Below the pieces are notes generated by a model. It did no database searches. It had not been told where the DNA came from and was given only the letters and a program-made list of their open reading frames with translations. A program made the position numbers and the translations under genes. This document shows positions 14,187-19,151 of a stretch of 64,000 nucleotides of DNA, in pieces. The DNA comes from Candidatus Magasanikiibacteriota bacterium (lineage in GTDB: Bacteria > Patescibacteriota > Patescibacteriia > Magasanikbacterales > GWA2-37-8). Location of the stretch: positions 45,902 to 109,901 of the forward strand of contig CAWJAS010000001.1 in the NCBI GenBank assembly GCA_963840935.1, given 5' to 3'. Position 1 is the stretch's first letter, and each line of letters starts with the position of its first letter.

Positions 14187-16877
14187 TTATTTTATATCGC
14201 CCCAATTTTGGGCTTGATGAATATCAACCATCACCGGCACTCTTAACTTCACAACATTCTCCATGGCTTGTTTTATTATCTTTGAAACATCGTCTGCCAA
14301 TTCAACTTTCACTTCAAAAACCAATTCATCATGAACTTGCAAAAGAATTTTTAAGTCATTTTTGGAATATCCAACAAGTTGTTTGTCGGCTTCTATCATC
14401 GCCATTTTCATCAAGTCCGCCGCCGTGCCTTGCACCGGATGATTAACGGCCATACGCTCGGCCGCGCTACGTAATTGAAAATTTGAAGCGTTTAGCTCGG
14501 GTATATAACGACGTCGGCCAAATAGGGTCTCGCAATATCCTTCTTTTTTGGCAAGCATTATCGTATTTTCCAAATATTTTTTTACCCCTGAAAATTCCGA
14601 AAAATATTTTTCAATAAATTTTTTTGCTTCCGCTTGCGAAATGTCGGTCCTTGAACTCAAGCCATACGAACCCATGCCATACAAAACACCAAAATTCACT
14701 TCTTTGGCCGCACGTCGCATTTCTTTCGTCACTTCTTCCAAGGGCACATTATTTATCGCTGCTGCCGTCGCTCGATGAATATCTTCACCTTTGTTAAAAA
14801 TTTCTATCATTTTCTTGTCTTCGGCGAGCGATGCGACAATGCGCAATTCTATCTGCGAATAATCGGCGCTTAATAATATGTTTCCCGGCCCGGCCACAAA
14901 TGTTTTGCGAATTTTCGCGCCCAATTCCGTTCGGATTGGAATATTTTGCAAATTCGGGTCTGAACTCGACAACCGACCGGTTGCTGTAACCGCCTGATTA
15001 TATGTTGTATGCACTCTACCTGTTTTTGAACTGACTAACTCCGGCAACACATCAACATATGTATTTTGGAGCTTAGTTAACTCGCGCCATTGTTCAATTG
15101 AGTCGATAATCGGGTGGAGTCCGCGCATTTTTTCCAGTTCAGCCGCGGCCGTCGATAAACCGGTTTTTCCTTTTTTAATTCCCAAAACCGGAATATCCAT
15201 CTTATCAAACAAAATATCGCGTAACTGTGCCGGCGAACCGATATTAAACTCTTCGCCGGCCATTTGATAAATACTCTCGGTTATTTTTTTTAATTCTGAT
15301 TTCAAAAAATCAGATAATTTCTTAAGCTCAACCAAATCAACTAAAATTCCGTTTATTTCCATTTTGGCCAAAATCAATGCCACCGGTATTTCAATTTTTT
15401 TTAATAAATCCAAATTATTAGCGCTTTCGAGCTCGCTTTCCAATTTATCCTTAGCGGATAGCAAAATACCCAATTCCTCGCCTGCTTCAGACGCATTAAA
15501 CCCAAACAAACTATTTTGGCCGTTTGAAGATTTTAATTCCTTCCCCGCGTATTTTAATGCCACGCTATTTCTATCATGAGCTCTTGACCCGGGATTAAGC
15601 AAATATGAAGCAAGCATCAAATCAAAGATTTGATTTTTAATTTCAAGTTCAAGAGAAAATAATACTTTAGCTAATTTTTTTATGTCATGCGCGACCAATT
15701 CAAGTTCTTTATTAGCAAAAATTATCGAGATTTTTTCCGCAAATTCCGCCGGAATAAAATAACAATTTTTTTCAAGCGCAAAAATAAAACCGGAAAATTC
15801 AGATGAAGCGTCTTTATCAAATCCGCCCACTGCCTGAACAGCAAAAGTTTTCTCGTTTAATATTACTTTTATAAACTCTTCGACTTCTTTGTTGTTTTGT
15901 ATTTCAACGAATAATTTTTTAATCTGCGCTGACGTTTTTTTATTTTTTACACGTGATTCTTCTTTTACAATCTCATTTTTACTTCCGGGCAAACGATTGA
16001 CCAATGAAATAAATTCAAATTCTTGAAATAATTTTATCGCTTTTTCTCGATCGAATTCTTTAGCTTGGCAATCATCCAATTTAAAATCAATTCCCGGAAC
16101 ATTTTCATCAATAGTCGCAAGCTCAAAACTCATTCTGGCACTATCTTCGCCCTCTTTTAATTTATTGAGCGCGCCGGCTTTAATTTTTTTATCTAACGAT
16201 TTTTTCTTATCGCTTATAGCTTTGTAAATTTCATCAATACCGCCAAAATTTTTAATCAACTCAGTCGCAGTTTTTTCTCCAATCCCGGGAACGCCGGGAA
16301 TATTATCGGACACATCTCCGCGCAAAGCCTTGTAATCGACCATCCTCTCCGGCCCAAAACCAAAACGTTCCTCCACTTTTTTTGCGTCATAAATAATCGT
16401 ATCGCTCATACCCTTTCGCAAGGTAAAAACATTCACTCCCGGACGAATAAGTTGAAGCGTGTCCATGTCGCCGGTAACTATGTATGTTTCCAAATTTTTT
16501 CCTTTTAATTTGTTTACAATCGTCCCGATTACATCGTCAGCTTCGTATCCTTGTTTTTCATAAACCGGAATATTTAAGGCAATCGCCAAATCATGAGCCA
16601 AGGGAATCTGGTCATAAAGCTCTTGATCGGCCTTAACCCGCGTTGCCTTATATTTTTCGTATTTTTTGTGTCTAAAAGTCGGCCCCGCCATGTCAAAAGT
16701 AACGGCAATATAGTCGGGTTTCAAATCACGCCAAACTTTTAAAAGCATGGAAGCAAACCCGTAAACCGCGTTGACCATTTGACCTTTTTTGGTTGTCATT
16801 GGTGGCAAAGCATGATACGCCCTATGCACAATAGCGTTGCCATCAATTATTATTAACTTATTCATATTTATACTCAT
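14187..16877 (-). CDS. polA: DNA polymerase I
   Basis: 896 aa; 5'-3' exonuclease N-terminus, polymerase motifs (DYSQIELR, QVHDE). Confidence 0.93.
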   Translation of the reverse strand: MSINMNKLIIIDGNAIVHRAYHALPPMTTKKGQMVNAVYGFASMLLKVWRDLKPDYIAVTFDMAGPTFRHKKYEKYKATRVKADQELYDQIPLAHDLAIALNIPVYEKQGYEADDVIGTIVNKLKGKNLETYIVTGDMDTLQLIRPGVNVFTLRKGMSDTIIYDAKKVEERFGFGPERMVDYKALRGDVSDNIPGVPGIGEKTATELIKNFGGIDEIYKAISDKKKSLDKKIKAGALNKLKEGEDSARMSFELATIDENVPGIDFKLDDCQAKEFDREKAIKLFQEFEFISLVNRLPGSKNEIVKEESRVKNKKTSAQIKKLFVEIQNNKEVEEFIKVILNEKTFAVQAVGGFDKDASSEFSGFIFALEKNCYFIPAEFAEKISIIFANKELELVAHDIKKLAKVLFSLELEIKNQIFDLMLASYLLNPGSRAHDRNSVALKYAGKELKSSNGQNSLFGFNASEAGEELGILLSAKDKLESELESANNLDLLKKIEIPVALILAKMEINGILVDLVELKKLSDFLKSELKKITESIYQMAGEEFNIGSPAQLRDILFDKMDIPVLGIKKGKTGLSTAAAELEKMRGLHPIIDSIEQWRELTKLQNTYVDVLPELVSSKTGRVHTTYNQAVTATGRLSSSDPNLQNIPIRTELGAKIRKTFVAGPGNILLSADYSQIELRIVASLAEDKKMIEIFNKGEDIHRATAAAINNVPLEEVTKEMRRAAKEVNFGVLYGMGSYGLSSRTDISQAEAKKFIEKYFSEFSGVKKYLENTIMLAKKEGYCETLFGRRRYIPELNASNFQLRSAAERMAVNHPVQGTAADLMKMAMIEADKQLVGYSKNDLKILLQVHDELVFEVKVELADDVSKIIKQAMENVVKLRVPVMVDIHQAQNWGDIK

Positions 16878-16904
16878 TCTACGCTAAATAACCAAAAATC
16901 GCAA

Positions 16905-16935
16905 CAAAAAAACCGTCAGCCAAGGCTGACGGAAT
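16905..16935 (-). terminator. intrinsic terminator (CCGTCAGCCTTGGCTGACGGTTTTTTT on minus strand) between the LAGLIDADG gene and polA
   Basis: Perfect GC stem plus T run. Confidence 0.7.
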
Positions 16936-17010
16936 TGAGGACACGATGGGAGTTGCACCCATGCATAGCGGTTTTGCAGACCGCCGTGTTAACTACTTCA
17001 CCACGTGTCC

Positions 17011-17757
17011 CTATTGCAAATAGGATAATACATTTTCCACCTTTTTGTCTACCCTTGTTGGTCGTTGGTATAAATAATTACAAAATACTGCGGCTTTTCT
17101 TCTCAAATATAGACGGGGGCGATTGCCATACATAAATTTAAACAATTCTATACTATCTCCAGCGCCAAAACGTAATTGACTGGACCGATGGCTATGCAAA
17201 ACCGCCGCGTGTTTAAATACGCATTGATGCGACAAAGTATTCGATAATTGTTTTAAAAAACGGGGACTACCACTTGTAAACACAACAACAACCCTCTTTA
17301 TTATTGCCTGTCCGCGTGATCCCTTGCCATGTTCAAAATATACGCACCCATCACCGTCAAAATAACCACGCACAAAATCTGAAATATAATTCCTGGGCAC
17401 TTTTGGGAATTGCATTGTTAAAGATTTATTTGGTGACAGTCCCAACGCTACCAAACTATCAAATAAACCATGGTCGCCAATACGTATAAAATAGCGAACG
17501 CTTCCACCCACGGTCGTCGGTTGTAATTTTGACACAGTGTGACCTGATCCAAGTTCTCGTTTTATATAGTCAATCATTTCTTTGTCGATACTAGAAGCAC
17601 GAAAATATTTACCTCTTAAATATGAAGCATCCTCCAAACTGCCATCCGCATATATATAACCCAACAAATAGGCCATATTTCTGCTCCATTTTAAAAAATA
17701 TCTATTGTTAATCGAATATTTAACGCCCATACTAAGTAGTAAGGATACATACTGCAA
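17011..17757 (-). CDS. LAGLIDADG homing endonuclease, two-motif single-chain type, free-standing
   Basis: Motif 1 LLGYIYADGSL and motif 2 FVRGYFDGDGCV about 100 aa apart; own start codon; not embedded in a host ORF. Confidence 0.75.
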   Translation of the reverse strand: MQYVSLLLSMGVKYSINNRYFLKWSRNMAYLLGYIYADGSLEDASYLRGKYFRASSIDKEMIDYIKRELGSGHTVSKLQPTTVGGSVRYFIRIGDHGLFDSLVALGLSPNKSLTMQFPKVPRNYISDFVRGYFDGDGCVYFEHGKGSRGQAIIKRVVVVFTSGSPRFLKQLSNTLSHQCVFKHAAVLHSHRSSQLRFGAGDSIELFKFMYGNRPRLYLRRKAAVFCNYLYQRPTRVDKKVENVLSYLQ

Positions 17758-17804
17758 CTATAATAACAAAAAAGAGAAAATCAAACAACTTTCTCTTTTA
17801 TGGA

Positions 17805-19151
17805 TTATTTAACGTATTTGAGAGGGTTAACCTTTGAACCGTTAACCTGAACTTCAAAATGCAAATGAATACCCGTCGGGCCATAGACTTTTCCAGTATT
17901 GCCCATCAAGGAAATTGTTTGACCGGTTGTTACCTGATCGCCTGCGCTAACGAGTAATTGATTATTGTGGCCATACAAAGTTCGCACGCCATTGCCGTGA
18001 TCAATAATAATATAACAACCATACCCGCTATTCCATCCGCATTGCGAAACGACAACTTTGCCGGATCGTGCCGCATAAATGGCGGAATTTTTTGGCCCGG
18101 CAATATCCAAACCATAATGACGCCAGCCAAAATATTGGGTGATAATTTTTGCTGAAGACGGCCAAACATAGCCGGAGACTGTCGGTGATTGAGCCGACGA
18201 CGCAGGAGCGGAACCGGTGTATCTTGTTGAAGCCGCTCCGGTAGTGGTGCGAGCTATGACAGGAGCCGCTTTTTCACCATTGGGAACCATGATACGCTCG
18301 CCGGCAACCAAATCGCTGTTATCTTCTTTTAAACTATTAAACTTAATAATTTCCTCCGCTTCCGCGCCGTAAGTTGAGGCGATTTTTTTAATTGTGTCTC
18401 CTTTTTTAACTGTATGCATCAATCCTGTTGTCGGCAAAATTTTTAATTTATCACCAGGACGAATTATTGAAGAAAGCGATATACTATTTTCCCATAATAA
18501 AGTGGAAACACTAATTCCATATCTATAGGAGATGGAACTCAAAGAATCACCGGGTTCGACCGTATGTTCAATAGTATTTTTCCTTTCCTGACCAATAATA
18601 ATCACGCCGGGAATAATCGAAGGCTTGGTTACCGCGCCTCCGCCAATAGCAATCATGCCTATGTCGGTATCATACACATAATCCACCGATTGAGCGTTTG
18701 AAGTTAAATCTCCCTCCACTGCTCCAACTCGCCAAATCGGAGCATCAACAGAAGAATATGATTGCTCTTCAACTTGAATAACCTCGTAGTCAAAATTTTC
18801 TCCCGGCCCAAACAATCGATAAGCGACTGATTGTTGCCCCGGATGAGAAGTAAGTTCCTCTGAATATAATTTGGTTTGTGGTAAAGCGGAAACAAATAAA
18901 ACAACGAGCAGTACTATTTGCAAATTATCTCTTTTTAACCACCAAACCTGGTCTTTTCCCCAACCAATACGGCGTAAAAAATATTCTATTTTATATGCCC
19001 AAAACGCCAAAAAACGCCAAACAAACGATGTTAATTTGGCTAAAATGCGATAAAATCCAAAACCGGACCACCAAATAAACCTTTTTATCGCAACCAATAA
19101 ACGAAGTAATACCAGAAGAAATTTGTATTTCATACCTTGACGATTTAGCAT
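17805..19151 (-). CDS. LysM-domain M23 family peptidoglycan endopeptidase
   Basis: N-terminal TM, two LysM repeats, C-terminal M23 block (IDHGNGVRTLYGHN...HLHFEV). Confidence 0.85.
   Translation of the reverse strand: MLNRQGMKYKFLLVLLRLLVAIKRFIWWSGFGFYRILAKLTSFVWRFLAFWAYKIEYFLRRIGWGKDQVWWLKRDNLQIVLLVVLFVSALPQTKLYSEELTSHPGQQSVAYRLFGPGENFDYEVIQVEEQSYSSVDAPIWRVGAVEGDLTSNAQSVDYVYDTDIGMIAIGGGAVTKPSIIPGVIIIGQERKNTIEHTVEPGDSLSSISYRYGISVSTLLWENSISLSSIIRPGDKLKILPTTGLMHTVKKGDTIKKIASTYGAEAEEIIKFNSLKEDNSDLVAGERIMVPNGEKAAPVIARTTTGAASTRYTGSAPASSAQSPTVSGYVWPSSAKIITQYFGWRHYGLDIAGPKNSAIYAARSGKVVVSQCGWNSGYGCYIIIDHGNGVRTLYGHNNQLLVSAGDQVTTGQTISLMGNTGKVYGPTGIHLHFEVQVNGSKVNPLKYVK

Follow-up and report, generated by a model that had tools for sequence, protein, structure and literature searches.

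A putative free-standing homing endonuclease gene of the LAGLIDADG family upstream of tRNA-Cys(GCA) in bacteria of the Candidate Phyla Radiation

Introduction

The window analysed here is a stretch of 64,000 nucleotides from a Candidatus Magasanikiibacteriota bacterium (assembly GCA_963840935.1, contig CAWJAS010000001.1), and the element in question is an open reading frame (ORF) for a LAGLIDADG protein that lies between polA and a LysM/M23 peptidase gene and directly abuts a complete tRNA-Cys(GCA) gene. On balance we consider it probable, by no wide measure, that this ORF is a homing endonuclease gene standing free in the 5′ leader of tRNA-Cys(GCA) and carried by neither an intron nor an intein; the homing itself we infer from comparative sequence evidence.

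To our knowledge, homing endonuclease genes are thought to persist in essential genes only by means of self-splicing introns or inteins or, in phages, between genes. The locus suggests another, cellular solution, namely to occupy the stretch of a pre-tRNA that is trimmed away in any case. If true, this would represent a new niche for mobile elements and would account for the recurrent, unannotated ‘hypothetical/LAGLIDADG’ gene beside tRNA-Cys in genomes of the Candidate Phyla Radiation (CPR). It would also provide a natural case in which protein, promoter and tRNA coding overlap, and supply new scaffolds for meganucleases, with the tRNA junctions as a possible guide to their targets.

The LAGLIDADG gene and its product

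The slot from 16878 to 17804 is the entire intergenic spacer between polA (14187..16877, minus strand) and the LysM/M23 peptidase gene (17805..19151, minus strand), both of which are full length, and the genes for polA, an H+-PPase and trigger factor give the window a cellular setting. A single long ORF occupies the slot, on the minus strand. Its longest open frame in the ORF list (17011..17757, minus strand) runs for 248 aa from a TTG at 17757, and the original prediction had described it as a free-standing, double-motif LAGLIDADG gene of that length, with its own start, between the M23 peptidase gene and polA. All of this stands apart from the length, which holds only for the farthest TTG. 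Since the homologues open with a near-invariant MGIKY, the ATG at 17730 is most likely the true start, and the ORF then spans 17011..17730 on the minus strand and encodes 239 aa up to a TAG stop at 17013..17011.

The product matches the Pfam family PF14528 (LAGLIDADG_3) with an E-value of 9e-10 and 39.1 bits against a curated cut-off of 22.5. This is the sole Pfam match of the ORF, to which no helix–turn–helix (HTH) or other domain has been added; the Pfam scan gave no match to a Hint/intein domain, HTH_WhiA or WhiA_N, no NCBIfam model matches the product and PADLOC makes no defence-system assignment. Two LAGLIDADG motifs are present with both catalytic aspartates intact: LLGYIYADGS (17638..17667, minus strand; aa 22–31) with Asp29, and VRGYFDGDGC (17344..17373, minus strand; aa 120–129) with Asp127. 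Among 89 full-length family members, Gly24, Ala28, Asp29 and Gly30 of the first motif, Gly122, Tyr123, Asp125, Gly126, Asp127 and Gly128 of the second, and Lys102 are all invariant (89/89). An AlphaFold (AF2) model built from 27 homologues, with a predicted local distance difference test (pLDDT) score of 90.5 and a predicted template modelling (pTM) score of 0.89, displays the expected LAGLIDADG order of helices and strands (tandem alpha-beta-beta-alpha-beta-beta-alpha). Its best Foldseek matches in the PDB are I-Tsp061I (2dch) at the top and the bI3 maturase in second place, together with I-OnuI, I-AniI and I-SceI, and the probability is 1.00 for the four endonucleases. A sequence search of the PDB returned only a marginal match to I-Tsp061I (E 0.066) alongside spurious beta-lactamase matches. 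Pairwise ratios of nonsynonymous to synonymous substitution (dN/dS) range from 0.04 to 0.17 (about 0.1), in pairs whose dS is near or past saturation, and indicate that the protein is under strong purifying selection. Judged by its sequence and predicted fold, the ORF is a real two-motif LAGLIDADG endonuclease gene, an independent frame with its own start that is neither intron- nor intein-borne.

Association with tRNA-Cys

ARAGORN calls a tRNA-Cys(gca) gene at 16937..17010 on the minus strand, and Rfam agrees (tRNA, RF00005; 62.2 bits against a threshold of 29, E 4e-11), as does the junction analysis described below. The base that follows its acceptor stem, read from the sequence, is U. This flank of the ORF had earlier been taken for an extended GC stem at about 16940–17010, perhaps a residual intron or a target fragment. 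The stem is no free hairpin; it is the acceptor stem of the complete tRNA-Cys(GCA), and an intact tRNA gene stands in place of the supposed intron residue. A terminator had been placed after the stem, and there is indeed a separate intrinsic terminator, CCGTCAGCCTTGGCTGACGG plus a T run, at 16903..16932 on the minus strand (called at 16932..16913; terminator scan and sequence), which closes the ORF–tRNA transcription unit ahead of polA. Because the tRNA adjoins the ORF without a spacer and the terminator comes after it, any transcript of the ORF runs into tRNA-Cys.

The pairing extends across the family. A protein search returned 580 homologues, mostly of about 50% identity and about 240 aa and labelled Patescibacteria/Parcubacteria; lineage names of loci are, here and below, the labels in database record titles. 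In the first four contexts tRNA-Cys(GCA) follows directly after the gene, the flanking protein genes differing. A family scan with one genome per species yielded 416 loci that encode a relative, and the best 80 of the 416 were analysed: 79 have a same-strand tRNA-Cys(GCA) right after the ORF, and the 80th ends at a contig edge. These 79 and 4 loci from encoding contigs make up the 83 loci whose 3′ flank is on the contig, and in 83/83 of them tRNA-Cys comes directly 3′ of the ORF in the same orientation. CPR labels of the carriers include Morani-, Yanofsky-, Nomura-, Magasanik-, Andersen-, Doudna-, Taylor-, Kaiser- and Levybacteria. As every relative examined has its ORF linked to tRNA-Cys, the tRNA gene with its leader is the likely anchor or target. 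The target fragment of the original prediction thus came nearer to the truth than its residual intron, for a reason that had not been foreseen, and polA, recA or rRNA, which it had named as targets to check, give way to the tRNA gene and leader.

As a viral control we used 80 distant relatives on IMG/VR viral contigs, and the pairing with tRNA-Cys occurs in 0/80; a viral origin was rejected on the grounds that these relatives are only 25–40% identical and none lies beside tRNA-Cys. Two genomes labelled Omnitrophota (PVC group, after Planctomycetes, Verrucomicrobia and Chlamydiae) by record titles only also carry the ORF–tRNA-Cys arrangement: L046, a metagenome-assembled genome (MAG) of Candidatus Kappaea frigidicola, and L083, the single-amplified genome (SAG) AM-311-K22. 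Their tRNA-Cys genes are of their own, normal type, with G18/U55 and an encoded CCA.

The junction between ORF and tRNA

In the window, the +1 base of tRNA-Cys is the base right after the TAG stop of the ORF, leaving zero spacer. The first 18 nt of the tRNA (GGA CAC GTG GTG AAG TAG) keep to the reading frame of the ORF and, translated, give the tail GHVVK*, which 31 homologues use. Junction statistics were compiled for 84 loci. The tRNA is uninterrupted in 84/84, and the position of the stop relative to tRNA +1 ranges from −108 to +24 nt with a mode of −18, besides one read-through ORF at −340. The stop falls at −18 in 31/84 loci, where the TAG of the tRNA D-loop is used and tails such as GHVVK result; it falls at −21 or −22 in 14/84, at 0 in 4/84 (the window among them) and at +2 to +24 in 23/84. 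A few ORFs run through the entire tRNA, and altogether about 60% of family ORFs terminate within it. As the reading frames into the tRNA differ among loci, the fused peptide is not conserved. The overlap of ORF and tRNA in most members is also of practical note for annotation.

The tRNA-Cys of the window has an unusual A18/G55 pair, the other 8 tRNAs of the window being normal. Among the tRNA-Cys genes of the window and loci L001–L284, D-loop nucleotide 18 and T-loop nucleotide 55 covary perfectly: a D-loop ‘NAG’ always goes with GGTGCRA (G55) and ‘NGG’ with GGTTCRA (U55), so that the near-universal G18:U55 tertiary pair is exchanged for A18:G55 in these tRNAs. Other isotypes across the fetched loci almost always have U55. 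The A18 form generates the TAG that serves as the stop for many ORFs. We considered whether the D-loop TAG evolved as an ORF stop and rejected this as a general rule, given that the A18/G55 type (TAG, CAG, AAG) also occurs in ORF-less loci.

Expression signals

The promoter scan places the promoter region of the window ORF at 17736..17784 on the minus strand, with a −35 box TTGATT (17784..17779) and a −10 box TATAGT (17762..17757). It includes the family-conserved motif TTGCAGTATGTATCCTTACTAC at 17757..17736 (minus strand), 5′ of the ATG. Across the family the conserved motif upstream of the ORF start reads TTGCAGTATATAT..TTACCACYTATAAT, and TGCAG is found no more than 45 nt from the start in 57/82 loci, compared with 2.8% of random 45-mers. 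In one set of loci (class A) the motif reads as a −35 and a −10 box separated by 17 nt; the start codon, in many cases GTG, comes 6 nt further on, an arrangement that suggests a leaderless mRNA. In class B loci, the window among them, TGCAG directly adjoins a TATAAT-like box, and the motif forms a 5′ untranslated region (UTR) of about 26 nt. The motif (TTGCAGTATATAT..TTACCAC), of about 22–29 nt, is thus kept both between the −35 and −10 boxes and within the 5′ UTR, which exceeds the needs of a promoter. Its length is roughly that of a site bound by a LAGLIDADG protein, and it is similar to the −10 region of tRNA-Cys promoters at ORF-less loci. Possible roles are an operator for autoregulation and the left half of a target.

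Directly after the stop codon of the M23 peptidase gene, an AT-rich hairpin with a T run (AAAAGAGAAAGTTGTTTGATTTTCTCTTTTTT) lies at 17768–17800 on the minus strand. It resembles a terminator for the peptidase gene and shares bases with the −35 box upstream of the ORF; because its stem has few G–C pairs, it escaped the terminator scan.

A further promoter-like element, reported by the promoter scan at 17022..17051 on the minus strand (TAGACA, 18 nt, TATCCT), lies within the 3′ end of the ORF. Its −10 box ends 11 nt ahead of tRNA +1, and it is a candidate internal promoter for tRNA-Cys. We scored promoter-like sites as pairs with at least 9 of 12 positions matching and a −10 box ending 8–22 nt before tRNA +1. 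Such pairs occur in the last ~45 nt of the ORF in 34% of carriers, as opposed to 3.4% of control positions in the same ORFs, a tenfold enrichment, and in a like proportion (32%) of ORF-less tRNA-Cys loci. The tail of the ORF therewith appears to double as a tRNA promoter.

Loci with and without the ORF

An ORF-blind search of metagenomes, with a pattern derived from the tRNA alone, gave 120 tRNA-Cys loci, about 93 of them with enough upstream sequence. About 85 of these are without the ORF, 6 have a full-length member and 1 (L204) has a remnant. One of the empty loci, L193, consists of an M23 peptidase gene, an 85-nt spacer with a promoter, tRNA-Cys and polA, and is syntenic with the window; the two polA products are 91% identical over the 66 residues available on the short L193 contig. 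Further pairs of filled and empty loci with conserved flanks are L043/L167, L018/L171, L257/L259, L077/L261, L027/L274, L053/L224 and L217/L241. The ORF-less loci are nested among carriers, the flank of L167, for example, being nearer to that of L043 than are the flanks of the carriers L036, L012 and L050.

In the window/L193 pair and the others the flanks are too diverged for exact placement of the insertion borders. The left border can be placed only near the motif TTGCAGTATA, which is similar to the −10 region of ORF-less tRNA-Cys promoters. The tRNA can be 99–100% identical between loci with and without the ORF; a site lying wholly within the tRNA would therefore fail to explain immunity, and a site that is split by the insertion is favoured.

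Two decayed copies were seen. In L204 (8427–8697) only the C-terminal 56 codons, a part that overlaps the tRNA promoter, are left before tRNA-Cys. In L239 (1288–1594) an internally deleted gene of a sister family, with aa 1–32 joined to aa 164–209, precedes tRNA-Leu(UAA).

Sister families at other tRNA junctions

The fetched contigs also encode more distant, sister LAGLIDADG ORFs that score 100–168 bits against the family profile. They lie in the spacer between tRNA-Cys and tRNA-Leu(UAA) in L218, L220 and L223, directly 5′ of tRNA-Leu(GAG) in L183 and L238, and directly 5′ of tRNA-Val(GAC) in L195. The Cys–Leu sister family has 719 database matches, and the order tRNA-Cys, ORF, tRNA-Leu(UAA) recurs in three more genomes (among L285–L289); in an Amesbacteria locus the sister ORF is divergent from tRNA-Cys. 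The fit can be tight: the sister ORF of L218 (2561–3289) begins 4 nt past tRNA-Cys and stops 5 nt short of tRNA-Leu. Empty Cys–Leu spacers have a median length of 27 nt, so that a recognition site of about 20 bp there would be drawn mostly from the conserved ends of the two tRNAs. The downstream flanks of L048 and L223 are 76% identical over 1.5 kb, yet the two loci have their endonuclease genes at different sites. A search for hidden sister-gene remnants in 17 long Cys–Leu spacers (about 170–1100 nt) found that of L239 only. In L209 (275–1175) a sister ORF comes after tRNA-Cys and tRNA-Leu(UAA), an exception to the rule that these genes lie 5′ of a tRNA; neither ARAGORN nor Rfam finds a tRNA downstream of it.

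A model of homing into a tRNA leader

RNase P removes 5′ leaders regardless of their sequence. We propose that the protein is an active, site-specific DNA endonuclease that would cut ORF-less tRNA-Cys loci at or near the junction between promoter-leader and tRNA 5′ end, and that repair off the ORF-bearing copy would install the gene, which amounts to homing. The insertion would be harmless, as the mature tRNA is left untouched, RNase P would trim the leader and the last ~45 nt of the ORF could still drive the tRNA. In effect, tRNA processing would take the role that self-splicing has for endonuclease genes in introns. In loci whose ORF stop lies within the tRNA, the stop codon would be cut away by RNase P; this would limit nuclease output, and tRNA maturation and nuclease synthesis would compete on one transcript. 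Related subfamilies may apply the same trick at other tRNA junctions.

A broader version of the model, which we put forward tentatively and hold to be rather less assured than the homing endonuclease itself, envisages a superfamily in CPR and some Omnitrophota that lives in pre-tRNA leaders and tRNA–tRNA spacers. Its subfamilies would be tuned to Cys, Cys|Leu-UAA, Leu-GAG and Val-GAC, with RNase P and RNase Z keeping the insertions harmless. The overlap with the tRNA and the encoded promoter would set maturation and nuclease expression in competition, and homing would continue in populations of filled and empty loci.

Alternative explanations

Filled and empty loci in conserved synteny, decayed copies and sister families at other tRNA sites speak for homing. 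Several observations weigh against it. The ORF diverges at about the rate of its neighbours: between L051 and L056 it is 73% identical and the neighbours 65–72%, and between the Omnitrophota-labelled L083 and L046 the figures are 63% and 48–63%. A rough neighbour-joining (NJ) tree largely tracks the taxon labels. Near-identical copies in unrelated backgrounds were not seen among the loci compared, and recent horizontal movement is therefore not visible. Taken together, the co-divergence with neighbours, the label-following tree and the lack of foreign near-copies point to a mostly vertical, long-term resident with scattered losses; long-term vertical residence with losses fits the data equally well, and such a pattern is compatible both with homing confined to populations and with a domesticated protein. 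The sequence 5′ of ORF-less tRNA-Cys genes is poorly conserved, and half of a junction-spanning target would consequently vary. Co-conversion, assessed from the identity of tRNA-Cys and tRNA-Leu(UAA) in syntenic filled/empty pairs, gave mixed results with no clear signal. Lasting and strong purifying selection is, moreover, unusual for a purely selfish and fixed endonuclease gene.

These points bear most directly on the possibility that the ORF encodes a domesticated LAGLIDADG protein, an old insertion inherited vertically that acts as a regulator or maintenance factor of the tRNA-Cys/tRNA-Leu locus or as a pre-tRNA-Cys factor, the ORF-less loci being losses. The low dN/dS (0.04–0.17, with dS near or past saturation), the co-divergence of the ORF with its neighbours within lineages and a tree that broadly tracks taxon labels would all be expected of such a protein; the overlap of ORF tail and tRNA promoter implies long co-adaptation, and the ~22–29-nt upstream motif that is kept in promoter spacer or 5′ UTR could be its operator. 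In WhiA, the maturases and other domesticated LAGLIDADG proteins, however, the catalytic residues have generally been lost, whereas here both catalytic aspartates and Lys102 are invariant and no HTH or other domain has been added. Most tRNA-Cys loci of the same type do without the ORF, among them close syntenic relatives that nest within groups of carriers, and copies with truncations or internal deletions persist. The sister families at other tRNA junctions, with the alternative site occupancy in relatives, look more like the target diversification of a mobile nuclease than like a single host function. We therefore regard domestication as rather unlikely, albeit the most serious of the competitors. 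A good deal less probable is an inert passenger, a decaying former endonuclease gene kept only for the tRNA-Cys promoter in its 3′ end and encoding a functionless protein. In its favour are the enrichment of promoter-like elements in the ORF tail and the L204 remnant, which comprises exactly the C-terminal 56 codons beside the tRNA. Against it, the protein is under selection over its whole length (dN/dS about 0.1), the active-site residues do not vary (89/89 members) and frames are intact in more than 80 species.

A third alternative, that of an endonuclease encoded in the usual way by an intron or intein, with its host gene or ribozyme overlooked and the stem-loop as an intron remnant, deserved attention because introns abound in the rRNA and tRNA genes of CPR and LAGLIDADG enzymes are encoded in their rRNA insertions (PMC11270868, PMC13011429). 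This is effectively refuted. Rfam finds no group I, group II or other intron family in the whole window at gathering thresholds, and at E ≤ 10 over 16700–18000 it returns the tRNA only; the sole RNA in the slot is a complete tRNA, of a kind that is uninterrupted in all 84 junctions. The ORF comes with a start and a promoter of its own, contains no Hint/intein domain and is flanked by a full-length polA and a full-length M23 peptidase gene. The original prediction, which had seen no interrupted host gene and had proposed an intron search of the flanks, is upheld on this point: polA, the peptidase gene and the tRNA are all intact, and no split host gene is found.

Relation to known systems

Neither the enzyme family nor free-standing homing as a concept is new. 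In phage T4, the free-standing GIY-YIG endonuclease SegB is encoded among clustered tRNA genes and recognises a site of 27 bp, 11 bp of which belong to a conserved T-psi-C motif of tRNA; its gene spreads along with the tRNA genes around it and drives their inheritance (PMC2330249). SegB and other free-standing phage enzymes share with the ORF a stand-alone intergenic gene near tRNA genes that has its own expression signals and needs no intron, and SegB may be regarded as the closest functional analogue. The differences are nevertheless considerable. SegB is a GIY-YIG enzyme of a phage genome, while we are dealing with a LAGLIDADG enzyme, presumed to home, in a cellular CPR chromosome; enzymes of the Seg/Mob type are GIY-YIG or HNH, and what the ORF shares with them is the intergenic slot and a promoter-like site, not the catalytic domain. 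Unlike segB, furthermore, the ORF abuts or overlaps the tRNA and holds a promoter-like element for it.

As an enzyme, the product is nearest to the LAGLIDADG endonucleases of archaeal and CPR rRNA introns and insertions. Those of CPR rRNA insertions and group I introns and the intron-encoded archaeal enzymes of the I-Tsp061I/I-DmoI type agree with our protein in enzyme family, in the two-domain monomer fold and in their association with conserved structural-RNA genes, and the enzymes of CPR rRNA insertions come from the same host group (PMC11270868). Their coding sequences, in contrast, interrupt the RNA gene and are spliced out or excised, whereas the present ORF lies outside the mature tRNA, in its leader, and has no ribozyme. 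A survey of tRNA introns in Patescibacteria describes HNH enzymes in tRNA-Asn introns and no LAGLIDADG enzyme at tRNA-Cys (PMC13011429). Recent surveys of CPR rRNA insertions and Patescibacteria tRNA introns make no mention of a LAGLIDADG gene before tRNA-Cys, and we found no published description of the pairing. The niche, which combines a cellular chromosome, a pre-tRNA leader or spacer, an ORF/tRNA overlap and an embedded promoter, is apparently undescribed.

Two further comparisons can be drawn. In the tRNA punctuation of mitochondria, the cuts of RNase P and RNase Z define mRNA ends. The coding sequences there, like organellar free-standing LAGLIDADG ORFs of fungi and algae, are butted against tRNA genes; here the setting is a bacterial chromosome and the ORF often overlaps the tRNA; the likeness would be one of anatomy and of the known action of RNase P. 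WhiA and LAGLIDADG maturases such as bI3, the second-best fold match of our product, have been kept by their hosts in non-nuclease roles. WhiA, a LAGLIDADG-derived transcription factor, differs in that it has a C-terminal HTH and its catalytic acidic residues are gone, whereas the family described here keeps both aspartates (89/89) and has no extra domain.

Two minor observations concern individual loci. On the viral contig IMGVR_UViG_3300028920_000001 (L097), a LAGLIDADG relative of 28% identity (5001–5660) lies in a phage tRNA cluster and ends 60 nt ahead of a tRNA-Trp gene; it may be a phage counterpart of the same strategy. In the MAG DATDVS01 (SMAG_U8090), two copies of the series ORF, tRNA-Cys, tRNA-Leu and tRNA-Lys were found on separate contigs (L025 and L061), which could be a strain mixture in the bin or a real duplication.

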